A stretch of DNA of 32,000 nt from Acaryochloris marina MBIC11017 (GCF_000018105.1 NC_009925.1:4140001-4172000), one strand, 5' to 3'; positions 4,958-19,776 are shown, counted from the stretch's first letter. The notes: generated from the letters alone by a model not told the origin. Made by a program: numbers and translations.

Positions 4958-5812
4958 CTAGGCAGTAATCATGGTTCCAATCCCAGAATCGGTAAAAATT
5001 TCTAGCAGTAGGGCATGGGGGGCGCGACCATCAATAATATGGGCAGCTTGAATCCCTTGGGCTAAAGAGCGAATACAGCAGGTCACCTTTGGAATCATGC
5101 CTCCAGCTACAACCTCTGCTGCTATCAGCTCACGAGCCTGGCGAATATCCAGTTTGTGAATGAGGGATGTTGCGTCTTTATAGTCTTGAAGAATGCCTGG
5201 GGTATCCGTTAGTAGAATGAGTTTCTCAGCATCTAACGCAGCGGCGAGTTCTCCCGCGACGGTATCAGCATTAATGTTATAGACCTGTCCTTCTTCGTCG
5301 GTCGCCACACTGGACACGATGGGAATATGTCCCCCATCGAGCAGGTTATGGATCAGTTGGGGGTTTACTGAGGCCACCTCTCCTACAAACCCAATGCCAG
5401 ATTCTCCCTGGGGACGAGCCGTGAGTAACTTGCCGTCCTTGCCGCAGACGCCAACAGCCGATCCTCCGGCCTGGTTAATTAGGGAAACCAGTTCTTTATT
5501 CACTCGCCCCACCAACACCATCTCAACCACATCCATTGTTGGTGCATCGGTTACTCGCAAACCCTTCATAAACTGAGGCTCAATTCCCAACTTTTCCAGC
5601 CATAGATTAATTTCCGGTCCCCCGCCATGGACGAGGACAGGGCGTAGACCAACACAAGCCATAAACACCACATCCCGAATTACTGTGGCTTTAAGGGTGC
5701 TATCTTTCATGGCCGCCCCACCATATTTAACAACGACTGTGCGTCCAGCGAAGGATTGGATGTAAGGAAGAGCCTCACTTAATACTTGGACGCGATCGCT
5801 AGCGTTAAACAT
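4958..5812 (-). CDS. argB: N-acetylglutamate kinase
   Basis: [19 protein letters not shown] and [14 protein letters not shown] are amino-acid kinase family signatures. The ORF opens at TTG 5827; the first ATG (MFNASD) is at 5812. Confidence 0.93.
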
Positions 5813-6253
5813 GGGGTTGGGTGGCAAACAAAGAGAACAACGCGCAAACCATTGAACAGTAAAGGCTTGCCCATAGACAGCAGTTTAGCTCGTTATGGTA
5901 GGTGACCGTAAGCAGGTCATGCAAGCAAGCCTCATAGCTATGATTGACGCTCTCTGATGATCAGGAGAGGGATATCAACATCCGTCTTTAGTCGAGAACT
6001 TTTCAGGTCGGTTGAACGACTAAAAGGTATCCAGTTACGGCAGACTTCTTTTAGAGAAGAAAATATGATTTCCTCGTCATATCGTGTCAGTTATGGTGAG
6101 GTCATAGGTCTTTTTATGTTCTGAATTTTAATTTCCTTCATATAATCTTTTGAGAAATAATTTATATATTCTCTTAGGTGCTGTAGGCTTTTTAGAAATA
6201 ATTTTCCTGGAATACCTTCTGTGTTTTGACGAGTTAAAGTCATATTTTGTGGG

Positions 6254-6283
6254 TTGCATTACATGGTAATTGATGGTTATAAT
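6254..6283 (+). promoter_or_regulatory. Sigma70-type promoter candidate for cassette 1 (TTGCAT-18 bp-TATAAT)
   Basis: TTGCAT at 6254-6259 and TATAAT at 6278-6283. It sits 17 bp inside the start of the near-identical block and implies a 5' leader of about 390 nt before the A1 ATG. Confidence 0.45.
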
Positions 6284-6677
6284 TAGGTCATTAAAAGTAT
6301 TTTTACTCTAATAAATTTTAAGATAAAACTTATTATCATATCATTATTATTTCTGAAAACAATAAAATATAAGCATCTTTTTTATTCACTTAAGGAATAC
6401 TTAGAGAATCCTGAGAATCTTCTCAGAGTGGTTATTGTAATTACAGTGTTTAGTAGCTGTAGGCCCAATCATTCCTGACTAAATAATCTAGAAAGAAATA
6501 AAGGAGTCATGAGTTTTCTTTGTTTCTTTTGCTTGTTTATCCAATATTTGAAGCGTTGTGATGAACTGCTTCTCAAATATTTGAATGAAACTAAGCAGGA
6601 ATGATTGCCTATTTTGTTGGTGTGCAGCCCCGATTGCTTTGATCTCTAAAAATTTATTCACCTTAGTGAGGTTTAAT

Positions 6678-7127
6678 ATGAAAGCTCAACGCCTTCTACC
6701 CCTTTGCTCTGCTCTTTTCTTGGGTTTAGCTGCTGCTCCTGCCTTTGCAGGTTCTGCTAGTGTTTCCAACAGCTTCTCCATTCGTGATATCAAGAATGGT
6801 TATTCTCACACCAATATTAAAGTGAAAGAATGGTACGGCGGTATTCGTTCTGCTGGAGCCGATGCTAGCAAGGTATCTGTTGGTGTTACCACAACCCAGG
6901 ACGGTAGCACGACTACTCAGACTCAATATTGTGGTTGGGGTTGTAAGAAGTCTACGACTACAAACAACGGCCTATTTTCTGAAACAGATTACTCTGTTGC
7001 CACTTCTTCTAGCTGGTCCAAAGAGTACGGTGCATTCAAAAAAGACACTAACGTTCATGTTCATGAGAGCTATCACTTTGATGGCATCGACAAGACTCAC
7101 ACCGTTGGCTCTAGCTTCAGCTTCTAA
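6678..7127 (+). CDS. Small secreted protein A1 (149 aa, Ser/Thr/Gly-rich, CxxxC, C-terminal ...HTVGSSFSF); unknown family
   Basis: SD gtgagg lies 7 nt upstream of ATG 6678. Sec signal peptide MKAQRLLPLCSALFLGLAAAPAFA|GS. A paralogous copy is at 10214-10663. The 31-codon extension from 6585 in the ORF track has no RBS. Confidence 0.8.
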   Translation: MKAQRLLPLCSALFLGLAAAPAFAGSASVSNSFSIRDIKNGYSHTNIKVKEWYGGIRSAGADASKVSVGVTTTQDGSTTTQTQYCGWGCKKSTTTNNGLFSETDYSVATSSSWSKEYGAFKKDTNVHVHESYHFDGIDKTHTVGSSFSF

Positions 7128-7165
7128 ATCAAGCTAGCTGCTTCATATCTAAGCCAAACAAACAA

Positions 7166-7190
7166 GGGGCAGCAGCTAAGCTGTTGCCCC
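7166..7190 (+). terminator. Strong intercistronic hairpin after gene A1 (attenuator or RNA-stabilising stem)
   Basis: GGGGCAGCAGC-taa-GCTGTTGCCCC is an 11-bp stem with one G-U pair, followed by TTTGCTC (short U-tract). It is conserved identically at 10702-10726. Confidence 0.55.
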
Positions 7191-7215
7191 TTTGCTCAGC
7201 TCAGGAGAATTAATC

Positions 7216-7956
7216 ATGCGTTATCGTCTTGGGCTGTTGAGTACATCGGTTGTGGGAATGTTGACATTGTCATCTGGCTCAGTTTTAGCCCAAACGACAA
7301 ATAACATCACAGTACCTAACAACTCCCAATCAACAGCTAACCCTGAAGTCAGCCTTGATCAGCAGGGCTCATTAGTAAATACTCAGGTCAACAGTACAAC
7401 CTTAGGCCGCAGTGTTGTTGGCAACGGCATAGCAGACTGTACCAGTAATGGTTTAAGCGTGTCAGCCTATGGTAGTGGTGTCGGTCCCTTTGATACCGGT
7501 ACGGTTGGCGGTGCGATTACCTATACCCATTCTTTTGGGATGGATACCTGTAAGCAGTACGCCAAGAATCAATTAGGGAAAGCGAAGCTTGAAACCTGTT
7601 TTTTATTAATCAGTAACTATTCCAAAATGGTTAAAGCAGGTATTGATGTCAGCTATACAGCGCTGATGGAAGTGGCTAATGTTGACTGTCCACCTGTGAC
7701 AGTTCGTCAAGCTGCGATTCCTCAGCCCTCTCCTTCTGCCTCGAATCGTCCAGCATCGACTCCGGTTTCATTGCAAGGGCAGCAACCCGCTCCAACGCCT
7801 ACGGTGCGAGAGTATGGCAATAGTCCACAGAATCCACCTCAAGCGCAGACCCCATCCCCATCGGAGCCACAACTCAAGACAGCATTACCTAACTCAACTT
7901 CAGAGTTGCCTGCTGTTCAAGGGCCTCAACGATTGACGGCTAAAGAGTTGCTTTAA
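7216..7956 (+). CDS. Secreted protein B1 (246 aa; 4-Cys globular part plus Pro/Gln/Ser-rich C-terminal tail); unknown family
   Basis: SD aggag at 7203-7207. Signal peptide MRYRLGLLSTSVVGMLTLSSGSVLA|QT. The tail reads PQPSPSASNRPASTPVSLQGQQPAPTPT..PQNPPQAQTPSPSEPQ. Copy at 10752-11492. Confidence 0.8.
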   Translation: MRYRLGLLSTSVVGMLTLSSGSVLAQTTNNITVPNNSQSTANPEVSLDQQGSLVNTQVNSTTLGRSVVGNGIADCTSNGLSVSAYGSGVGPFDTGTVGGAITYTHSFGMDTCKQYAKNQLGKAKLETCFLLISNYSKMVKAGIDVSYTALMEVANVDCPPVTVRQAAIPQPSPSASNRPASTPVSLQGQQPAPTPTVREYGNSPQNPPQAQTPSPSEPQLKTALPNSTSELPAVQGPQRLTAKELL

Positions 7957-8175
7957 TGTCGATTCAGGGGATAACACTGTGTGTTGCCTACTTTGATTCT
8001 CTGTTGCGACCTAATCAGACCAAAAAGCATTGCTGTGAATTTCTGGCTTGATAGTATTTCCAGCGCTAAAGAAAGACTTTTATAGTCTGTGATTAAGCCA
8101 GCCACATATGACTGACTTCAGCTCCCAGGATTGAAATGTCTCGGACAGGCACCCCGAATAAGGAGGGCATGATTG

Positions 8176-8553
8176 ATGCAACTGAAACTAACACTTTATG
8201 GTGCTGTGGCCTATGCCGTTTTCAGTACATCACCTTGCTATGCCCAGATAGTGCATGTGATGACGTTTCAGAACTCGTCGGGTGGACGCCATATTAGAGA
8301 AATTACTGGCCAACAAACCCAGGATGATCAGTCCATTGGTGTTTCTCTCAATACGTCTGATGAGCGTACAACAACCCGTTCTTCGTCCACAGTGAATGGT
8401 GTAACCCAAGAGCAAACCTATACCTATATCAACTCAGCTAAGAGTCAGGCAGTAGAAACGGGGCATCGCAGAAGAATTGAACATACTCGGCTTTTTGAAG
8501 CGTATGACTATTCGGACTACGCTGTTGACCACACTGTCGATTTTAGTTTTTAA
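8176..8553 (+). CDS. Small secreted protein C1 (125 aa, C-terminal ...VDHTVDFSF), distant paralogue of A
   Basis: SD aggagg at 8161-8166. Signal peptide MQLKLTLYGAVAYAVFSTSPCYA|QI. It shares collinear motifs with A (IREI/IRDI, IGVS..TTT, E.Y.[YF]...HTV..FSF). Copy at 11753-12130. Confidence 0.8.
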   Translation: MQLKLTLYGAVAYAVFSTSPCYAQIVHVMTFQNSSGGRHIREITGQQTQDDQSIGVSLNTSDERTTTRSSSTVNGVTQEQTYTYINSAKSQAVETGHRRRIEHTRLFEAYDYSDYAVDHTVDFSF

Positions 8554-8707
8554 GTGCTAGTTGACTGCCTGGATACCCAATAGTCTCTACATCTATGGCG
8601 ATTCAGTGTGCTGACCTCAGCGAGCTGCTAGGGAAGATCACTCTTCTAACCCTTCAGTGTTTTCTGAAAACCCTACTCCAGGACAGTTGTTGCTAGGAGA
8701 TTTAACG

Positions 8708-8998
8708 ATGAAATCTACGATATTTTTAACGACAGTTATCACAGGGTTGAGTATTCTACCTGCCCAGGCTCAGACTCAGTCTTTCTTTGGGGTGCCCATT
8801 GGTCAAGATGTGCCAGTGATCGTCTTTTCCCCGGTGACTCAGTACTATCCGAACTATTATCCGGGACCTGGTTTTTACCAATATAGTCACTATTTTCGAA
8901 GCACAGAACACCATTTAGACTTTGATAAATATGACTACCTGCTCAGTGACGACTTGGTATACAACTTTCCCGTAGTCGGCAATTTTAATTACAAGTAA
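8708..8998 (+). CDS. Small secreted Tyr/Pro/Phe-rich protein D1 (96 aa); unknown family
   Basis: SD aggag at 8693-8697. Signal peptide MKSTIFLTTVITGLSILPAQA|QT. Aromatic low-complexity stretch YYPNYYPGPGFYQYSHYF. Copy at 12313-12603. Confidence 0.75.
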   Translation: MKSTIFLTTVITGLSILPAQAQTQSFFGVPIGQDVPVIVFSPVTQYYPNYYPGPGFYQYSHYFRSTEHHLDFDKYDYLLSDDLVYNFPVVGNFNYK

Positions 8999-9154
8999 TT
9001 CTGAAACGGCTGTAGATTTATGGTATCCGCCAATCCCTTGTATTCAGCGATTGCAGGTAGTGAGGGTTGGATGGCCTCAGTCTTCTTATAAATAGATGCT
9101 TTAAGAAAGTGGGCGGCAGCCTAAAAGTTTTCAGTTATTCTAAGCATTATGACT

Positions 9155-9185
9155 AGCGCTCGTTATTGCGAGCGCTTTTTGCTTT
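9155..9185 (+). terminator. Rho-independent terminator closing cassette 1
   Basis: agcgctcg-ttattg-cgagcgct is a perfect 8-bp GC-rich stem followed by tttttgcttt, about 155 bp after the D1 stop. Confidence 0.75.
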
Positions 9186-9789
9186 CAATTTTTTAAGAAA
9201 ACCATTTGACTTGCAGAATCATAAGGAACGATAGCCTCAATAGTTGCTGTATCTCAACAGTGCAAGATATTTCTGGTGACGTAACGATCGCGCTTATTTC
9301 TCGATCACGATCAGTAATTGATATGGAGCTACTGCGCTTTCTGCCCATAATAGTGTTAGATAGGTTGGTCACCCTGTAGATCAAGCACTTTACGATGCCT
9401 CAGTAGGTGCAGATCATGGGCGACGTTGTGTGTGGTTCAATTTTTATGGCTCGGCCTAATTTTCACTTTTCAAGTTTATGCAGCTAGATGTGATTGTTAT
9501 TGAAGAAGGTTCATTGACGCTTCACTAGAATGAACTTTTTAGATAGCTTGAACGACTAGAAAGGTATCAAGTGATGATCAATAATTTTTAGAGGCTAAAA
9601 TAAAATTATCTCGTCAGATTGTGTCAGTTATAGTGGGTCTCTAGGTCTTTTTGTGCTCTCTATTTTAATTTTCTTCATGCAATCTTTTCGTCAACAATCA
9701 ATGCCTTCTCTTTGTGTTGTAGGTATTTCAGGAGTTGTGAGCCTGAGATAACTCATGTATTTTATTGATTGAAAGTCATATTTTGTGGG

Positions 9790-9819
9790 TTGCATTACAT
9801 GGTAATTGATGGTTATAAT
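9790..9819 (+). promoter_or_regulatory. Sigma70-type promoter candidate for cassette 2 (identical to 6254-6283)
   Basis: TTGCAT at 9790-9795, 18-bp spacer, TATAAT at 9814-9819. Confidence 0.45.
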
Positions 9820-10213
9820 TAGGTCATTAAAAGTATTTTTACTCTAATAAATTTTAAGATAAAACTTGTTATCATATCATTATTATCTCTGAAAACAATA
9901 AAATATAAGCATCTTTTTTATTTACTTAAGGAATACTTAGAGAATCCTGAGAATCTTCTCAGAGTGGTTATTGTAATTACAGTGTTTAGTAGCTGTAGGC
10001 CCAATCATTCCTGACTAAACAATCTAGAAAGAAATAAAGGAGTCATGAGTTTTCTTTGTTTCTTTTGCTTGTTTATCCAATATTTGAAGCGTTGTGATGA
10101 ACTGCTTCTCAAATATTTGAATGAAACTAAGCAGGAATGATTGCCTATTTTGTCGGTGTGCAGCCCCGATTGCTTTGATCTCTAAAAATTTATTCACTTT
10201 AGTGAGGTTTAAT

Positions 10214-10663
10214 ATGAAAGCTCAACGCCTTCTACCCCTTTGCTCTGCACTTTTCTTAGGTTTAGCTGCTGCTCCTGCCTTTGCAGGATCTGCTAGTGTT
10301 TCCAACAGCTTCTCCATTCGTGATATCAAGAATGGTTATTCTCACACCAGTATTAATGTTAATGAGTGGTACGGCGGTTATCGTTCTGCTGGAGCTGATG
10401 CCAGCAAGGTATCTGTTGGCGTTACCACTACTAAAGACGGTAGTGCTACGACTCAAACTAAGTACTGTGGACGCAATTGCCGTAAGTCCACAACAACTTA
10501 CAACGGCCTGTTTTCTGAAACAGATTACTCTGTTGCCAAGTCTTCTAGCTGGTCAAGAGAATCCGGTTTATTTACAAAAGACACCAACGTTCATGTCTAT
10601 GAGAGCTATGACTTTGATGGCATCGACAAGACTCACACCGTTGGCTCTAGCTTCAGCTTCTAA
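10214..10663 (+). CDS. Small secreted protein A2 (149 aa), divergent allele-like paralogue of A1
   Basis: Same RBS, signal peptide and C-terminus as A1. There are 18 amino-acid replacements, all between residues 46 and 133. Confidence 0.8.
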   Translation: MKAQRLLPLCSALFLGLAAAPAFAGSASVSNSFSIRDIKNGYSHTSINVNEWYGGYRSAGADASKVSVGVTTTKDGSATTQTKYCGRNCRKSTTTYNGLFSETDYSVAKSSSWSRESGLFTKDTNVHVYESYDFDGIDKTHTVGSSFSF

Positions 10664-10701
10664 ATCAAGCTAGCTGCTTCATATCTAAGCCAAACAAACA
10701 A

Positions 10702-10726
10702 GGGGCAGCAGCTAAGCTGTTGCCCC
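10702..10726 (+). terminator. Intercistronic hairpin after gene A2
   Basis: Identical to 7166-7190. Confidence 0.55.
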
Positions 10727-10751
10727 TTTGCTCAGCTCAGGAGAATCAATC

Positions 10752-11492
10752 ATGCGTTATCGTCTTGGGCTGTTGAGTACATCGGTTGTGGGAATGTTGA
10801 CATTGTCATCAGGCTCAGTTTTAGCCCAAACGACAAATAGCATCACAGTACCTAACAACTCCCAATCAACAGCTAACCCTGAAGTCAATCTTGATCAGCA
10901 GGGCTCATTAGTAAATACTCAGGTCAACAGTACAACCTTAGGCCGCAGTGTTGTTGGCAACGGCATAGCAGACTGTACCAGTAATGGTTTAAGCGTGTCA
11001 GCCTATGGTAGTGGTGTCGGTCCCTTTGATACCGGTACGGTTGGAGGTGCGATTACCTATACCCATTCTTTTGGGATGGATACCTGTAAGCAGTACGCCA
11101 AGAATCAATTAGGGAAAGCGAAGCTTGAAACCTGTTTTCTGTTAATCAGTAACTATTCCAAAATGGTTAAAGCAGGTATTGATGTCAGCTATACAGCACT
11201 GATGGAAGTGGCTAATGTTGACTGTCCGCCTGTAACGGTTCGTCAAGCTGCGATTCCTCAGCCCTCTCCTTCTGCCTCGAATCGTCCGGTATCGCCTCCG
11301 GTTTCATTACAGGGGCAGCAACCTGCTCCAACGCCTACGGTGCGAGAGTATGGCAATAGTCCACAGAATCCACCTCAAGCGCAGACCCCATCTCCAGTAG
11401 AACCGCAACTCAAGACAGCATTACCTAACTCAACTTCGGAGTTGCCTGCTGTTCAAGGGCCTCAACGGTTGACGGCTAAAGAGTTGCTTTGA
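10752..11492 (+). CDS. Secreted protein B2 (246 aa)
   Basis: About 96.5% nt identity to B1 by manual alignment, with 5 aa replacements. Same RBS and signal peptide. Confidence 0.8.
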   Translation: MRYRLGLLSTSVVGMLTLSSGSVLAQTTNSITVPNNSQSTANPEVNLDQQGSLVNTQVNSTTLGRSVVGNGIADCTSNGLSVSAYGSGVGPFDTGTVGGAITYTHSFGMDTCKQYAKNQLGKAKLETCFLLISNYSKMVKAGIDVSYTALMEVANVDCPPVTVRQAAIPQPSPSASNRPVSPPVSLQGQQPAPTPTVREYGNSPQNPPQAQTPSPVEPQLKTALPNSTSELPAVQGPQRLTAKELL

Positions 11493-11752
11493 TGTCGATT
11501 CAGGGGATAACACTGTGTGTTGCCTACTTATTCTCGGAGGATGTCGCTCAGTAATCTTGCACTTGTATAGATCAGGCGAAAGTGATTTCGACCTAGATGC
11601 ATTCCTGTTGATGCTTGAATTATGTCCATAACTCCAACGTGATCTCTAGTTTGGGGTAAAGAGCTGCAAGCAGGATTGACTTCAGCTTAGTTGCAGTGCC
11701 AGGACTATTACGACGCTATGTGAGTTTATTAGGATTTTGGAGGGCACAAGTA

Positions 11753-12130
11753 ATGCAGATGAAGCCAATACTTTATGGTGCTGTGGCCTATGCCGTTTTC
11801 AGTACATCACCCTGCTATGCCCAGATAGTGCACGTGATGACGTTTCAGAACTCATCGGGTGGACGCCATATTAGAGAAATTACAGGTCAACAAACCCAGG
11901 ATGATCAGTCCATTGGTGTTTCTCTCAATACGTCGGATGAGCGTACAACAACCCGCTCTTCGTCCACAGTGAATGGTGTGACCCAAGAGCAAACCTATAC
12001 ATACATTAACTCAGCTAAGAGTCAGGCAGTTGAAACGGGGCATCGCAGAAGAATTGAACGTACTCGGCTTTTTGAAGCGTATGACTATTCGGACTACGCT
12101 GTTGACCACACTGTCGATTTTAGTTTTTAA
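11753..12130 (+). CDS. Small secreted protein C2 (125 aa)
   Basis: SD ggaggg sits 8 nt upstream of ATG 11753. After the first 6 codons there are 13 nt differences from C1, 12 of them synonymous. Confidence 0.8.
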   Translation: MQMKPILYGAVAYAVFSTSPCYAQIVHVMTFQNSSGGRHIREITGQQTQDDQSIGVSLNTSDERTTTRSSSTVNGVTQEQTYTYINSAKSQAVETGHRRRIERTRLFEAYDYSDYAVDHTVDFSF

Positions 12131-12312
12131 GTTTGCATAGTGTATGCCCCAACAAGGATTGAGCAGATTGTCTATACACCAACAGGTGGTTGATCTTGCA
12201 GCCACTTGTGAGAGTGCTCACTGTGTTGAGCAGTTATGGGAAATCACTGTTCTGACCTATCGATCTTGTCTTGAAAAGTACTCCAAGGCAGTTGTTGCTA
12301 GGAGATTTAACG

Positions 12313-12603
12313 ATGAAATCTACGATATTTTTAACGACAGTTATCACAGGGTTGAGTATTCTACCTGCCCAGGCTCAGACTCAGTCTTTCTTTGGGGTGC
12401 CCATTGGTCAAGATGTGCCAGTGATCGTCTTTTCCCCTGTAACTCAGTACTATCCGAACTATTATCCGGGACCTGGTTTTTACCAATATAGTCACTATTT
12501 TCGAAGCACAGAACACCATTTAGATTTTGATAGATATGACTACCTGCTTAGCGACGACTTGGTATACAACTTTCCGGTAGTCGGCAATTTTAATTACAAG
12601 TAA
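12313..12603 (+). CDS. Small secreted Tyr/Pro/Phe-rich protein D2 (96 aa)
   Basis: 7 nt differences from D1 and one replacement (K to R). Same RBS. Confidence 0.75.
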   Translation: MKSTIFLTTVITGLSILPAQAQTQSFFGVPIGQDVPVIVFSPVTQYYPNYYPGPGFYQYSHYFRSTEHHLDFDRYDYLLSDDLVYNFPVVGNFNYK

Positions 12604-12840
12604 TTCTGAAACGGTCATCAATGCATTCTGCTCATCAACAATTGGGCAATAGTGTATGTAGTGATTGAAGACGATGGAGTTAGCCTTTTTCAGCTTGATC
12701 CATTCAAGGGAAGTAGTATTGAGTGCTGCTCCTCGGCAGAGCAATGCAGTCAAGCAATCGTTAAACTGAAGAGATGAATGTCATCTTGTTTAAGGTGATT
12801 TCATTGTTTTTGATTGTGACGACGCAAGGATCATACGCAT

Positions 12841-13497
12841 ATGAAAGCATTTGTGGCTGGAGCAACGGGTCAAACGGGTCGCCGCATTGTGTCTCAATTA
12901 GTTGAGCGGGGTATTCCCGTGCGAGCTTTGGTTCGAGATATGGATAGAGCAAAAGCACTCTTACCGGAAGCTGCTGAGTTAGTGGTGGGCGATGTATTGG
13001 ATGCGAGTTCGTTGGAGGATGCGATCGCAGATTGTAACGTCCTCCTTTGCGCCACCGGAGCGGCTCCTGGCTTTAATCCGTTTGCACCCCTACAAATTGA
13101 TTATCTGGGGACCAAAAACTTAGTAGATGTGGCCAAAGCTAAAAACATTGAGCATTTTGTTTTGGTGTCTTCCCTGTGTACATCGAAGCTGCTGCATCCC
13201 CTGAATCTGTTCTTCTTGGTATTGGTTTGGAAGAAGCAGGCCGAACAATATATTCAAAATAGCGGGCTCACCTATACCATCGTCCGTCCCGGCGGCCTGA
13301 AGAACGAGGATAATGATAATTCCGTCGTCATGTCTGCCCCCGATACTTTATTTGAAGGCAGCATTCCCCGGACCAAAGTGGCTGAAGTTTGTATTGAAGC
13401 CCTGACGGCTGCATCCTCTCACAATAAGATTGTTGAAATCGTTGCCCCGTCTGAAGCGTTAGACCGACCAATCCCTGACTTATTTGCTAGTGTTTAA
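12841..13497 (+). CDS. NAD(P)H-binding atypical SDR / NmrA-like protein
   Basis: N-terminal Rossmann motif MKAFVAGATGQTGRRIV. VSSL and RPGGL segments are typical of NAD(P)-binding (NAD_binding_10-type) proteins. Confidence 0.8.
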   Translation: MKAFVAGATGQTGRRIVSQLVERGIPVRALVRDMDRAKALLPEAAELVVGDVLDASSLEDAIADCNVLLCATGAAPGFNPFAPLQIDYLGTKNLVDVAKAKNIEHFVLVSSLCTSKLLHPLNLFFLVLVWKKQAEQYIQNSGLTYTIVRPGGLKNEDNDNSVVMSAPDTLFEGSIPRTKVAEVCIEALTAASSHNKIVEIVAPSEALDRPIPDLFASV

Positions 13498-17403: not shown

Positions 17404-19776
17404 ATGGCCACGAGATCGCTAGCAGCAACCCCAAAAGGCATCGAAATAATTGAAAGAGCCTTGATGGATAAGCAATGGGGGTGTGATGATCTCAAGAAGC
17501 AGTGTGATTGTAGCCGCCAGCCTGCTGTTAAGTTCTGTGCAGGCAAAAACGTCGATAGAAAGCTTTTTGTTGGTTTTTGCAAAGTATTAGAGCTGGACTG
17601 GGAAGAAATTTCAGGTATTAAGACTGCTTCAGAAGTAGCTGAAACGACTCAGGTTGCAACTGATATAAATACGCTTGTCCAAAAGATTCGTCAGAAAGTA
17701 AAAGCTGATATTCACCATCGCTGTGGCACGATGCGGGTGCTGGATATGGAGCAGCCGATTGGACTGGGTGAAATTTATACTCGCGTCAATATTCTTGAGA
17801 AACTATCTGGAAGGCAGCGTTTAAGGGTTGATGAGCTATGGCAAGATTGCAATATTGATAACTTTGATCGGTGGCTGCTAGGACAGGTGCGTGTCAAACG
17901 AGTACCGGGATTAGAAGCGGTTGAACGTTATAACAAGCTGCTGATTTTAGGTAAGCCTGGAGCGGGTAAAACCACTTTTATGAAGCGGTTAGCAACCCAA
18001 TGCAATCAGGGAAAGTTTGAAGCTTACCGAATTCCTGTGTTTGTCACCCTGAAAGAATTTGCTGAAGCGCCAGGTAAACCCGATTTGCAAAGCTATATTT
18101 TCCAGCAATGGGGAACTTGTGAAATTGAGGAAAATGCTCTTGGCCAGGTTCTAAAAACTGGTCATGTTCTGATTTTATTGGATGGTCTAGATGAAGTTCA
18201 GGCTACGGATCATGATCGGGTTTTGAATTCAATTAAGACATTTACTGAACAGTTTCGCGACTGCCAGTTTGTGATGACTTGTCGGATTGCCGCTCGCGAA
18301 TATACATTTGAGCAGTTTACGGAAGTGGAAGTTGCTGATTTTAACGAAGAGCAAATAGAAGACTTTGCTACCAAGTGGTTTAGAACTAAGCAAGATCCTG
18401 AAAAGGGTGAAAATTTCATCAAACGCTTGCAGGAAAATAAGCCAATTCAAGAGCTAGCAACTAATCCTTTATTGCTGACATTGCTGTGTTTGGTATTCGG
18501 TGAGGCCAATGATTTTCCCCATAATCGTTCAGAGCTTTATAAGGAAGGGCTAGATGTTCTGCTGAAAAAATGGGATGGCAAACGCAATATTGAACGCGAT
18601 CAGGTTTACAAAAAACTGTCCTTGCAGCGTAAAGAAGATCTGTTGAGTCAATTGGCTTATCAAACCTTTGAGCAAGGAGACTACTTTTTTAAACAACGAG
18701 TCATTGAAACTAAAATCATTGACTATATCCGTAATTTGCCAGGTGCTAATGAAGATGAAGAAGCGCTTCAACTGGATAGCGAAGCTGTGCTCAAGTCAAT
18801 TGAAGCCCAGCATGGCCTGCTAGTGGAAAGGGCTAGGGGGATTTATTCCTTCTCACACTTAACTTTTCAAGAATATTTCACGGCTAAACAAATTACTTGT
18901 CCTACTTCTCAACTTCCTAAAGCCCTAGAAAATCTCGCAAAACATTGTTTGGAAAAACGTTATCGAGAGGTCTTTTTTCTTGTTGTAGGAATGTTGCCTG
19001 AAGCCGATGATTTTTTCAGACTGCTCAAAATCCAGATTGATCGATTAATCGCTGATGAACCTAATTTACAAGAGTTTTTGGTTTGGGGTTCTGGAAAAGC
19101 TCAATCAGTTAATGCTGACTATAAATCAGAAGCAATCCGGGCTTACTACCTCTACCTCGCCCTCGCCCGCGCCCGCGCCCGCGCCCGCGACCTCAACCTT
19201 GACCGCGCCCTCGCCCGCGCCCGCGCCCTCAACCTCGCCCTCGCCCGCGCCCGCGCCCTCGCCCGCGACCTCGACCTCGCCCTCGACCTCGCCCTCAATC
19301 TTGACCGCGCCCTCGCCCGCGCCCTCGACCTCGCCCGCGACCTCAACCTCGCCCGCGACCTCAACCTCTACCTCGCCCTCGACCTCACCCTCGACCTCTA
19401 CCTCGCCCTCGACCACGCCCTCGACCAACTAACCAAAATTGAGTCAAAAGGAAAAGATGATCCCGAAATTCTTATTAAATTAAGAGCATTACAATCTCAA
19501 CTCCCTGATTTACAGGACATTCAAGCTTTCAGCAGTTGGTGGAAAGATATGGGAGAATCTTGGATCAAAAATTTGCGCCAAGTCATGATTGACCATCGCA
19601 ATATTGGTCATTATTGGCAATTCACCCCAGCCCAAACGGAAAAACTGCAGCAGTATTTTGAGACCAATCAATTATTGGTTGATTGCCTCAATAGCGATTG
19701 CTACGTCACCAAGGCCACTCGCGAGGAGATCCTGTCAACTTTGCTATTACCGATAAGTGAACTGGAGAAGCAGTAG
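17404..19776 (+). CDS. NACHT-family STAND NTPase with N-terminal HTH-like module, C-terminal dipeptide-repeat array and conserved tail
   Basis: Walker A LILGKPGAGKTTFMKRL, Walker B VLILLDGLDEV, and NACHT-typical FVMTCRI, NPLLLTLLC and HLTFQEYF. The N-terminal approx 65 aa (SLAATPKGIEIIERAL..CSRQPAVKFCAG..VDRKLFVGFCKVLELDWEEI) resembles the module found at the N-terminus of many cyanobacterial NACHT/WD40 proteins. Confidence 0.9.
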   Translation: MATRSLAATPKGIEIIERALMDKQWGCDDLKKQCDCSRQPAVKFCAGKNVDRKLFVGFCKVLELDWEEISGIKTASEVAETTQVATDINTLVQKIRQKVKADIHHRCGTMRVLDMEQPIGLGEIYTRVNILEKLSGRQRLRVDELWQDCNIDNFDRWLLGQVRVKRVPGLEAVERYNKLLILGKPGAGKTTFMKRLATQCNQGKFEAYRIPVFVTLKEFAEAPGKPDLQSYIFQQWGTCEIEENALGQVLKTGHVLILLDGLDEVQATDHDRVLNSIKTFTEQFRDCQFVMTCRIAAREYTFEQFTEVEVADFNEEQIEDFATKWFRTKQDPEKGENFIKRLQENKPIQELATNPLLLTLLCLVFGEANDFPHNRSELYKEGLDVLLKKWDGKRNIERDQVYKKLSLQRKEDLLSQLAYQTFEQGDYFFKQRVIETKIIDYIRNLPGANEDEEALQLDSEAVLKSIEAQHGLLVERARGIYSFSHLTFQEYFTAKQITCPTSQLPKALENLAKHCLEKRYREVFFLVVGMLPEADDFFRLLKIQIDRLIADEPNLQEFLVWGSGKAQSVNADYKSEAIRAYYLYLALARARARARDLNLDRALARARALNLALARARALARDLDLALDLALNLDRALARALDLARDLNLARDLNLYLALDLTLDLYLALDHALDQLTKIESKGKDDPEILIKLRALQSQLPDLQDIQAFSSWWKDMGESWIKNLRQVMIDHRNIGHYWQFTPAQTEKLQQYFETNQLLVDCLNSDCYVTKATREEILSTLLLPISELEKQ
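19147..19425 (+). repeat. In-frame hexanucleotide microsatellite-like array (about 46 units, consensus RMC-CKC) inside the NACHT gene
   Basis: Units are GCCCGC, GCCCTC, GACCTC, AACCTC, GACCGC and TACCTC. They encode YLYLALARARARARDLNLDRALARARALNL...LALDHALD. The stretch is visibly GC-rich (about 70-75%) and has no stops in several frames on both strands. Confidence 0.95.

Follow-up and report, generated by a model that had tools for sequence, protein, structure and literature searches.

Two apparently maintained variants of a small exported protein in a duplicated cassette of Acaryochloris marina differ in the hypervariable module of their family

Organization and expression of the duplicated cassette

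The window analysed here is a 32,000-nt stretch of the Acaryochloris marina MBIC11017 chromosome (4.140-4.172 Mb), and all positions are counted from its first nucleotide, which lies at 4,140,001 according to published gene coordinates. A four-gene cassette is present twice in tandem within the window (Table 1). The predicted proteins of the region matched the products of AM1_4110 to AM1_4117 residue for residue. All eight cassette genes are annotated as "hypothetical protein", and all A to D products have a signal peptide at the N-terminus. Removal of the Sec signal peptide leaves a mature A of 124 aa. B is composed of the signal peptide, a near-invariant four-Cys domain, a variable Pro/Gln-rich tail and a conserved AKELL end. 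The operon neighbours are argB and an NmrA-like gene, and the other window genes, assigned by homology or from orthologous loci, include those for the tRNA methyltransferase TrmD, RNase HII, PhoH, a methyltransferase and Tex. The terminator-like hairpin 3' of unit 1 suggests that the two units may be separate transcription units.

Table 1. Features of the two cassette units (positions in the window)
Feature	Position	Strand	Remarks
Operon unit 1 (AM1_4110-4113)	5996-9009	+	From self-alignment, gene names by exact protein match; order: distal upstream region, leader, A1, B1, C1, D1
Distal upstream region, unit 1	5996-6230		70-75% identical between units
A1 leader	6231-6677	+	AT-rich, non-coding; 98-100% identical to copy 2
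Gene A1 (AM1_4110)	6678-7127	+	149 aa; Sec-type signal peptide 6678-6752, ending in PAFA before G
Divergence island of A1, codons 46-133	6813-7076	+	Hypervariable module of the A family
Cys loop of A1, C85-G-W-G-C89	6930-6944	+	Predicted β-hairpin tip; site of length variation in the family
Invariant C-terminus of A, FDGIDKTHTVGSSFSF, and stop codon	7077-7127	+	Same in A1 and A2
Gene B1 (AM1_4111)	7216-7956	+	246 aa; B2 at 10752-11492
B-C spacer, unit 1	7957-8175	+	Unalignable with the unit 2 spacer, 11493-11752
Gene C1 (AM1_4112)	8176-8553	+	125 aa; C2 at 11753-12130
C-D spacer, unit 1	8554-8707	+	Divergent from the unit 2 spacer, 12131-12312; unalignable
Gene D1 (AM1_4113)	8708-8998	+	96 aa, Tyr/Pro-rich, exported; D2 at 12313-12603
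Terminator-like hairpin and T run, 3' of unit 1	9155-9186	+
Operon unit 2 (AM1_4114-4117)	9532-12614	+	From self-alignment, gene names by exact protein match; order: distal upstream region, leader, A2, B2, C2, D2
A2 leader	9767-10213	+	5' UTR of 356 nt from the published transcript start
Gene A2 (AM1_4114)	10214-10663	+	149 aa; island at 10349-10612

We searched Pfam, NCBIfam, PHROGs and the PDB sequences with A to D and with the family profiles, and no meaningful match was obtained; the A to D products lie outside every described family. A text search found no paper discussing AM1_4110-4115, and AM1_4110, 4111, 4114 and 4116 do not occur in the mBio 2024 supplements. An oxygen-response transcriptome (PMC5295598) gives normalised values under control, microoxic and hyperoxic conditions of 35, 57 and 103 for AM1_4114 (A2), 14, 24 and 32 for AM1_4111 (B1) and 110, 284 and 392 for AM1_4116 (C2). 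Both units are thus transcribed, at low levels in culture. Gene A had been presumed to be the most highly expressed gene of the cassette, but the published values of A2 (35-103) are lower than those of C2 (110-392). A1 (AM1_4110) is not in the published list, which says nothing about its expression because the list holds differentially expressed genes only. The same study places the transcript start of AM1_4114 at 4149858, which is window position 9858 and gives a 5' UTR of 356 nt (RNA-seq, Table S3, PMC5295598). The equivalent position in the A1 leader is 6322.

Divergence between A1 and A2

A1 and A2 can be aligned without gaps at an offset of 3536. The first changed codon of the island begins at 6813 in A1 and the last one ends at 7076. 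The 18 replacements claimed for residues 46-133 in the original prediction were all present, namely N46S, K48N, K50N, I56Y, Q74K, T78A, Q83K, W87R and G88N in the first half, and K90R, N96Y, T109K, K115R, Y117S, A119L, K121T, H129Y and H133D in the second half (A1 to A2). Its count of about 23 synonymous-only codons in the same residues (we obtained 23) and its placement of the A2 equivalent at 10349-10612 agreed with our analysis, as did its description of the flanking parts of the gene: the signal-peptide residues are the same in both copies, with three synonymous changes (codons 12, 15 and 25), and the last 16 codons show no difference. Both cysteines of the loop are retained as well, with WG replaced by RN between them (YCGWGC in A1, YCGRNC in A2).

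The block 6231-7956 (1726 nt) aligns without gaps and contains 89 differences, 51 of which are located within the 264-nt island (binomial p = 1e-19), where the identity is 80.7% compared to 97.4% in the rest of the block. The island is also more divergent at synonymous sites than B, C and D are (Fisher p = 5e-9). The Nei-Gojobori method gave a pS of 0.46, a dS of about 0.71, a dN of 0.12 and an ω of 0.17 for codons 46-133. The ends of A outside the island have a pS of 0 to 0.15, and B, C and D between the units have a pS of 0.10 to 0.17, a dS of 0.10 to 0.20 and an ω of 0.04 to 0.10. A reading of the island as a pocket in which amino acid replacements are raised is not supported, since dS is raised as much as dN (0.71 versus about 0.1 in the flank, with an ω of 0.17). 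Because silent and replacement changes are raised together, the island is older than its flanks, and not faster at the protein level only. The comparison with gene C, for which a single replacement had been reported, holds for the mature part of the protein but not for the whole gene, which has four replacements when read from its start at 8176, three of them in the signal peptide. Counted from 8173, one codon upstream, gene C shows five amino acid and about 15 synonymous differences (Nei-Gojobori).

Leader, spacers and distal upstream region

The description of everything around the core of gene A as nearly identical was too broad, since the B-C spacer, the C-D spacer and the distal upstream region diverge as much as the island or more. 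Among the divergent patches between the units, the A island is the sole coding one. The upstream flank of A is indeed alike in the two copies, as had been stated, but homogenisation accounts for this only in part. The ~450-nt leader keeps an identity of more than 90% over most of its length in eight Acaryochloris loci, in which the housekeeping genes differ at half of the silent sites, and the signal-peptide codons of A are near-invariant across loci even at silent positions. The likeness of the upstream flank is thus largely that of a deeply conserved non-coding leader, and part of the flank identity appears to reflect deep functional conservation.

An Rfam search over 5800-12900 returned only a spurious miRNA match below the threshold. 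The consensus fold of the leader contained three compensatory pairs, with a covariation term of -1.4 kcal/mol, and there is too little sequence variation in the leader for such an analysis. A 31-codon upstream open reading frame at about 6509 with a good Shine-Dalgarno sequence was rejected as a coding feature, as the ribosome-binding site and the frame are lost at three loci (L002, L006 and L009), where the nucleotides are still conserved.

The A family and its predicted structure

In a word-indexed search, 5.8 billion proteins yielded 12 clusters of the A family, all from Acaryochloris, and an exhaustive profile search of 1.84 billion cluster representatives yielded 27. Altericista and Lyngbya confervoides share the order of a small A-like gene, B and a small C-like gene, and a D-sized small gene accompanies them in L. 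confervoides only, not in Altericista. B has a wider cyanobacterial distribution than A. By hhalign, C is remotely paralogous to A (probability 92%, E = 7e-7), whereas D was rejected as a paralogue of A. All members of the A family are conserved in the signal peptide, over about 20 residues at the mature N-terminus and over about 16 at the C-terminus, and within the genus both termini are invariant. The middle is hypervariable, and its length varies at the Cys loop. The island between A1 and A2 is exactly this hypervariable module. Furthermore, the core shows a period of two, in which free residues alternate strictly with fixed ones. MBIC11017, CCMEE 5410 and a third strain share an identical A1 protein, and fragments of both the A1-like and the A2-like type are present in NIES-2412.

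AlphaFold2 with 37 sequences predicted one very long β-hairpin for mature A, with strands 2-61 and 64-122 and the turn at W87-G88 inside the Cys loop. The confidence of this model was moderate only (mean pLDDT of 63, 70 to 78 around the tip; pTM of 0.23), and an earlier run with 11 sequences was weak (pLDDT of 52). The open end of the modelled hairpin is formed by pairing of the invariant N- and C-termini, and family members differ in length at the tip of the hairpin. Variable positions of one strand face those of the other, with a correlation of +0.5 to +0.7 at the register parity of the model and of -0.5 at the wrong parity. Mapping of the variable residues on a predicted structure, which had been proposed as a check of surface exposure, placed 16 of the 18 replacements on the free face of the β strands, which may be exposed. 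The variable face is the more hydrophilic one (K, T, S, N, Y, W and H). The conserved face is not hydrophobic either; small and acidic residues (G, T, S, D and A) are abundant on it, and in the model neither of the two faces resembles a membrane-embedded one. Foldseek gave shape-level matches only (TM of 0.15 to 0.30), to the long hairpins of oligomeric barrels or tubes in lysenin, anthrax protective antigen, CDTb, aerolysin and the phi29 and Andhra tail proteins. Since a two-stranded hairpin of 60 residues is not stable as a monomer, we infer from the model that A may be part of an oligomeric assembly.

Mosaic ancestry of the cassette

We gathered ten syntenic loci, all between argB and the NmrA-like gene. 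Three of them (L002, L005 and L007) have a single cassette, two (L001 and L006) have two tandem A genes ahead of one B-C-D, and in L004 the B gene is broken by an insertion sequence. CCMEE 5410 (L003) has the two-unit arrangement of MBIC11017. Across the island, A1 of one strain pairs with A1 of the other and A2 with A2 (0 to 6 differences per 90 nt), compared to about 26 differences per 90 nt between A1 and A2 in both strains. This orthologous grouping indicates that the duplication and the island are older than the split of these strains. Five sites showed a "concerted" pattern versus about 265 of the orthologous pattern in the two strains, and the homogenisation of the flanks would therefore be mostly a past event. 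Inside the island, the two copies of CCMEE 5410 are identical over a 62-nt tract (6831-6892) in which those of MBIC11017 differ at five sites. This tract appears to be a conversion footprint left by a later exchange.

The synonymous divergence between MBIC11017 and CCMEE 5410 is 0.12 to 0.19 in the background (NmrA-like gene, Tex and a 245-aa gene), with a pS of 0 to 0.05 in the cassette and of 0.60 in argB. Compared with L004, the A core has a pS of 0.66 and a pN of 0.30 against a background of 0.17 to 0.21. The unit 2 spacers share 84% (B-C) and 80% (C-D) identity with their L007 counterparts, to which the unit 1 spacers could not be aligned. The A core of either unit, in contrast, is distant from that of L007 (pS of 0.74 to 0.79). 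Among all sampled alleles, the A1 and A2 cores are mutually the closest relatives. In addition, the cassette phylogeny conflicts with that of the flanks. Judged from the pS contrasts between cassette and background and from the affinities of the spacers and A cores, at least four different ancestries appear to be combined within 3 kb.

The synonymous divergence is far lower in the flanks than in the island, as in a gene-conversion mosaic, and the likeness of conserved segments together with the unlikeness of fast ones is the pattern expected of identity-limited gene conversion. The island would then be an older segment in a mosaic of recombination and gene conversion and would not have arisen in a burst of positive selection. 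Homogenisation is indistinguishable here from a recent duplication with later patchwise replacement, which would give the same pattern.

Selection on gene A and alternative origins of the island

We fitted Goldman-Yang codon models (our own Python implementation, F3x4 frequencies, neighbour-joining tree) to 14 Acaryochloris A genes. M0 gave an ω of 0.154, and M1a assigned 74% of the sites to an ω of 0.06 and 26% to an ω of 1. Fast and constrained sites alternate, with an autocorrelation of +0.54 at lag 2 and -0.41 at lag 1. Of the 18 A1/A2 replacements, 16 are in the fast class, compared to 20 of the remaining 70 core positions (p = 4e-6), and the replaced sites have a higher entropy in the other family members when the A1/A2 lineage is left out (p = 4e-5). 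The per-site estimate of dN/dS that had been called for thus revealed hypervariable free sites, but a class with ω above 1 was not significant. A diversity-generating retroelement was rejected, as the four operon proteins and ten larger window ORFs gave no reverse transcriptase match, and the differences between A1 and A2 are not adenine-specific, with all four bases occurring on both sides.

The island might be a neutral by-product, that is, a part of A under relaxed constraint that became too diverged for conversion, a process requiring almost identical sequence, in which case the variants would be interchangeable and not maintained. The ω of 0.17 overall, the fit of the fast sites to an ω of 1 in M1a and the lack of significant improvement by M2a are consistent with this explanation, and the non-coding spacers likewise escaped homogenisation. 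However, at the fast sites we counted two replacement versus five silent changes within variants between strains, corresponding to an ω of about 0.10 (p = 0.004 versus neutrality), as opposed to 21 replacement versus eight silent changes and an ω of 0.63 between A1 and A2. Moreover, at least two strains have kept both variants, and NIES-2412 has fragments of both types. We therefore consider a neutral origin somewhat unlikely. The claim that gene A is kept as two distinct variants was borne out, since both are found in MBIC11017 and CCMEE 5410 and match by type across the strains. Both variants appear to be maintained, each of them being conserved between the two strains even at positions that are otherwise free.

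Another explanation is a recent operon duplication (dS of about 0.1), after which one A core was replaced from a diverged Acaryochloris allele, with the conserved leader and signal peptide on one side and the C-terminus and B on the other as homology arms. A cores indeed move apart from their neighbours, as shown by the unit 2 spacers, which resemble L007 while the cores do not, and by the conflict between the cassette and flank phylogenies. Under such an import, however, the distal upstream region, the A core and both spacers must each have been replaced separately, with B, C and D left untouched. The donor allele is absent from the alleles sampled, among which the A1 and A2 cores are closest to each other, and we regard this explanation as unlikely.

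Positive selection (ω above 1) on exposed residues, for example under pressure from phages or grazers, could also have made the island. M2a placed 3.8% of the sites at an ω of 3.3, among them positions 56, 90, 119 and 129, at which A1 and A2 have different residues. At the variable sites, an ω of 1.95 was obtained for the tandem A/A' pair of L006, a McDonald-Kreitman-like contrast of changes within and between variants showed an excess of replacements between them, and phage-borne relatives exist (see below). These data suggest adaptive divergence between A1 and A2. Nevertheless, M2a was not significantly better than M1a with 14 sequences (LRT of 5.5, p = 0.063), and the McDonald-Kreitman-like contrast reached only p = 0.073. 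The dS of the island is raised as much as dN, the corresponding pair in L001 gave an ω of 0.43, and such site tests are inflated by recombination and by saturation (tree length of 12 to 14 substitutions per codon). An arms race as the origin of the island is thus decidedly unlikely.

It is very improbable that A is a small secreted pore-forming toxin or bacteriocin whose hairpin oligomerises to a β-barrel and varies through competition between strains. The Foldseek matches to the stem hairpins of lysenin, anthrax protective antigen, CDTb and aerolysin fit such a protein, but they reach a TM of only 0.15 to 0.30 on a moderate-confidence model that has no head domain and no hydrophobic face. A toxin-immunity pair was rejected as well, because B, C and D are almost identical between the units and none of them co-varies with A as an immunity partner would. 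Finally, the suspicion that one copy is an untranscribed, decaying duplicate, which the missing A1 in the published list might raise, is effectively refuted by the two intact open reading frames, the identity of the A1 protein in three strains, the within-variant divergence between strains (pN of 0 to 0.01 versus pS of 0.09 to 0.13) and the transcription of A2, B1 and C2.

Relatives on phage-type contigs

The most distant branch of the A family was found on contigs with phage gene content (E of 4e-9 to 5e-4 with an Acaryochloris-only profile). Three of them (L012-L014) carry Baseplate_J, a gp25-like gene and large genes of tail-fibre size. The other two (L015 and L016) carry ribonucleotide reductase, ThyX, dCMP deaminase and an HNH endonuclease, and the reductase of L015 is nearest to that of the S-TIM5-group cyanophages, with 43% identity. 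Every phage A-like gene encodes a signal peptide and is followed by a gene weakly similar to B (hhalign E of 9e-4 and 7e-3). No further copies of the phage-type A were found by tblastn against GenBank phages or by a pattern scan of IMG/VR, and the phage link therefore draws on the gene content of the metagenomic contigs L012-L016.

Proposed role of the variable module

The explanation that we judge best overall, and hold with moderate confidence, is that the island is an old variable module of A in a conversion mosaic, kept as two maintained variants of a variable assembly subunit. Gene conversion between the copies would have made the conserved stretches alike, namely the leader together with the 5' end of A, the 3' end of A together with B, and C and D each by itself, and the stretches that had already diverged (the A core and the spacers) would have escaped conversion or been exchanged independently. 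A would act as the variable subunit of an assembly in the envelope or outside the cell. Contacts with A itself, with the paralogue C and with the invariant B may be made through the conserved face and the paired termini of A, and its variable face and tip loop may be exposed, so that the two operon copies would provide two versions of that surface per cell.

The variable face with a period of two, alternating with invariant positions, fits an exposed variable subunit with conserved assembly ends, which is our best guess for A. The original reading of A as a variant subunit of a surface structure is supported by this pattern and by the conservation of each variant, and we infer the surface location itself from the signal peptide and the conservation. 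The likeness to antigenic variation that had also been drawn found no evidence of a switching mechanism.

More tentatively, and as a possibility rather than an expectation, A, C, B and D may form an undescribed cyanobacterial assembly, in the envelope or outside the cell, made of very long hairpins in which one face and the paired termini stay invariant for assembly and the other face and the tip loop vary and are exposed. Recombination at the conserved ends would swap the variable module between cassettes and lineages, A. marina would have two serotype-like versions, and the structure may serve as a phage-host interface. The cyanophage-like contigs carry A-B pairs of their own, which suggests such an interface, for example a receptor or shield that is mimicked or replaced by the phage.

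The arrangement as such, in which duplicated and recombining genes have conserved ends and a variable middle, is familiar. What is new is the setting, namely a tiny unannotated family with a clean period-2 signature, a predicted long hairpin, a genus-wide leader and relatives on phage contigs. If A is surface-exposed, the cassette would offer a compact system for studying the diversification of cyanobacterial surfaces, the partitioning of a gene between conversion and selection, and the borrowing of envelope parts by phages. AM1_4110-4117 are concrete targets for this in a sequenced, culturable strain.

Comparison with known systems

The phage A homologues, which have signal peptides, resemble in this and in being phage-encoded the exported "moron" proteins by which phages modify the host envelope, such as Lom and Bor of lambda. 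One of them adjoins baseplate genes and one adjoins nucleotide-metabolism genes. However, no sequence or family relation of the A homologues to Lom or Bor was found, and the A operon, unlike phage morons, is chromosomal and syntenic across the genus and is not located in a prophage.

The A model shares a very long two-stranded antiparallel hairpin with β-pore stems and phage tail tubes (lysenin, anthrax protective antigen, aerolysin, phi29/Andhra). The likeness to the β-pore proteins is one of shape only, as opposed to sequence, and A has neither a globular head nor an amphipathic membrane-spanning tip. We rejected membership in the class of β-pore-forming toxins, as the whole mature A is a hairpin in the model, the TM does not exceed 0.30 (0.15 to 0.30) and neither face is hydrophobic.

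The A operon is similar to the operons of chaperone-usher pili and of the curli subunits CsgA/CsgB in that its first gene encodes a small exported subunit and C is a paralogous second subunit. An aromatic-x-aromatic C-terminal motif and invariant partners are further features shared with fibre operons. In contrast to these, the A operon has no chaperone, usher, CsgG/E/F or recognisable assembly protein, and A shows no apparent curli-type repeats and is not predicted to have an Ig-like fold. A PapD-like chaperone or usher was absent: B, C and D had no Pfam or NCBIfam match, and the outer neighbours are argB and the NmrA-like gene. Likewise, A had no Pfam match to a curli or Fap subunit, internal repeats were not apparent by alignment, and CsgG/FapF is not in the operon. 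A type IV pilin was rejected, because the signal of A is of the Sec type (PAFA, then G and the polar SASVSNS) and not a class III signal.

With the opa/pil genes of Neisseria and the duplicated tuf genes, as examples of concerted evolution in which islands escape conversion, the A locus has in common that the flanks are homogenised at synonymous sites while a divergent core is kept. A short apparent conversion tract is visible in the second strain CCMEE 5410. The A locus differs from these systems in having no silent cassettes or repeated switching sequences, in that its homogenisation is mostly old and in that part of the flank identity appears to reflect the deep functional conservation of the leader.

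Flagellin of the fliC/fljB type, in which the hypervariable middle is exposed and recombination takes place at the conserved ends, differs from A in several respects. A has 124 aa, is predicted to be all-β, carries a Sec signal peptide and has no invertase or other switch, and its variability follows a period of two along the strands instead of being placed in a separate domain; the flagellin domains PF00669 and PF00700 gave no Pfam match in A1, A2 or the 37 family members. In its overall design, however, A resembles flagellin, with conserved termini that are predicted to pair as part of the assembly, a hypervariable and length-variable middle that falls into deep allele classes, two paralogous copies and a mosaic ancestry.

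Recombination around the A-to-D cassette

The synonymous difference (pS) between MBIC11017 and CCMEE 5410 changed sharply along the locus. It was 0.60 in argB and 0 to 0.05 in the cassette, compared to 0.12 to 0.19 in the genes on the far side of the cassette from argB. These steps indicate recombination breakpoints on the argB side of the cassette. In CCMEE 5410, the B2 of unit 2 ends in a Pro/Gln-rich tail (aligned with window 7705-7795) that is unlike all three other copies. Each 90 nt contains 17 differences, there is also a gap of 15 nt, and this B2 is 241 aa long compared to 246 aa. The tail is a further small patch that has been replaced. The spacer between the two tandem units, which contains a strong terminator-like hairpin, is ~240 nt shorter in MBIC11017 than its counterpart in CCMEE 5410.

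Locations of the features discussed
Feature	Locus	Position
argB (compared with the CCMEE 5410 locus, L003)	window	4958-5827
Non-coding leader 5' of gene A, AT-rich, ~450 nt	window	6231-6677 and 9767-10213
Inter-unit spacer	window	9010-9531
Strong terminator-like hairpin in the spacer	window	9155-9186
NACHT/NCH2-domain (STAND NTPase) gene, 790 aa	window	17404-19776
Exosortase (EpsH family) gene, ~16 kb downstream	window	28949-30475
Gene A alone duplicated, order A-A'-B-C-D	L001	276-1511
Gene A alone duplicated, order A-A'-B-C-D	L006	3977-5116
Gene B split by insertion sequence, DDE transposase gene of 548 aa	L004	10546-13130
Distant A homologue, phage-like metagenomic contig	L012	8001-9165
Distant A homologue, phage-like metagenomic contig	L015	8001-9078
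Distant A homologues, phage-like metagenomic contigs	L013, L014, L016	

The leader upstream of gene A

In eight Acaryochloris loci the leader is more than 90% identical over most of its length, and about half of the silent sites differ in the genes adjoining it. The leader is better conserved than protein A, which is encoded 3' of it. The A2 transcript starts at window position 9858, giving a 356-nt 5' UTR (PMC5295598). The leader matched no Rfam family, and its consensus fold showed almost no covariation.

Other arrangements in the genus and the surrounding window

Two further Acaryochloris lineages (L001 and L006) duplicated the single gene A, not the whole operon. Their A/A' pairs diverge over the full length without homogenised ends, and the L006 pair has a dN/dS of ~1.95 at the variable sites. 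In one Acaryochloris lineage known from metagenomes (L004), an insertion sequence interrupts B, indicating that the operon can be inactivated in nature. A pattern scan of species-representative genomes found two Acaryochloris MAGs and missed MBIC11017 and CCMEE 5410, yet both contain exact matches to the search motifs; failure of the scan to return a genome is therefore not evidence of absence.

The PEP-CTERM signal is absent from A, B, C and D, so the cassette has no apparent link to the exosortase gene. Part of the NACHT gene (window 19100-19453) consists of successive tandem repeats, 12 and 18 nt in length, and its positional counterpart in CCMEE 5410, also a NACHT gene, is interrupted by a transposase gene.

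Relatives of A on phage-like contigs

The distant A homologues on phage-like contigs have signal peptides, and each is followed by a gene with weak similarity to B; in L012, the gene after the B-like one carries a YkuD-type L,D-transpeptidase motif. One contig type contains Baseplate_J and gp25-like genes. The other contains RNR, ThyX and HNH endonuclease genes, and its RNR is nearest to those of S-TIM5-group cyanophages.
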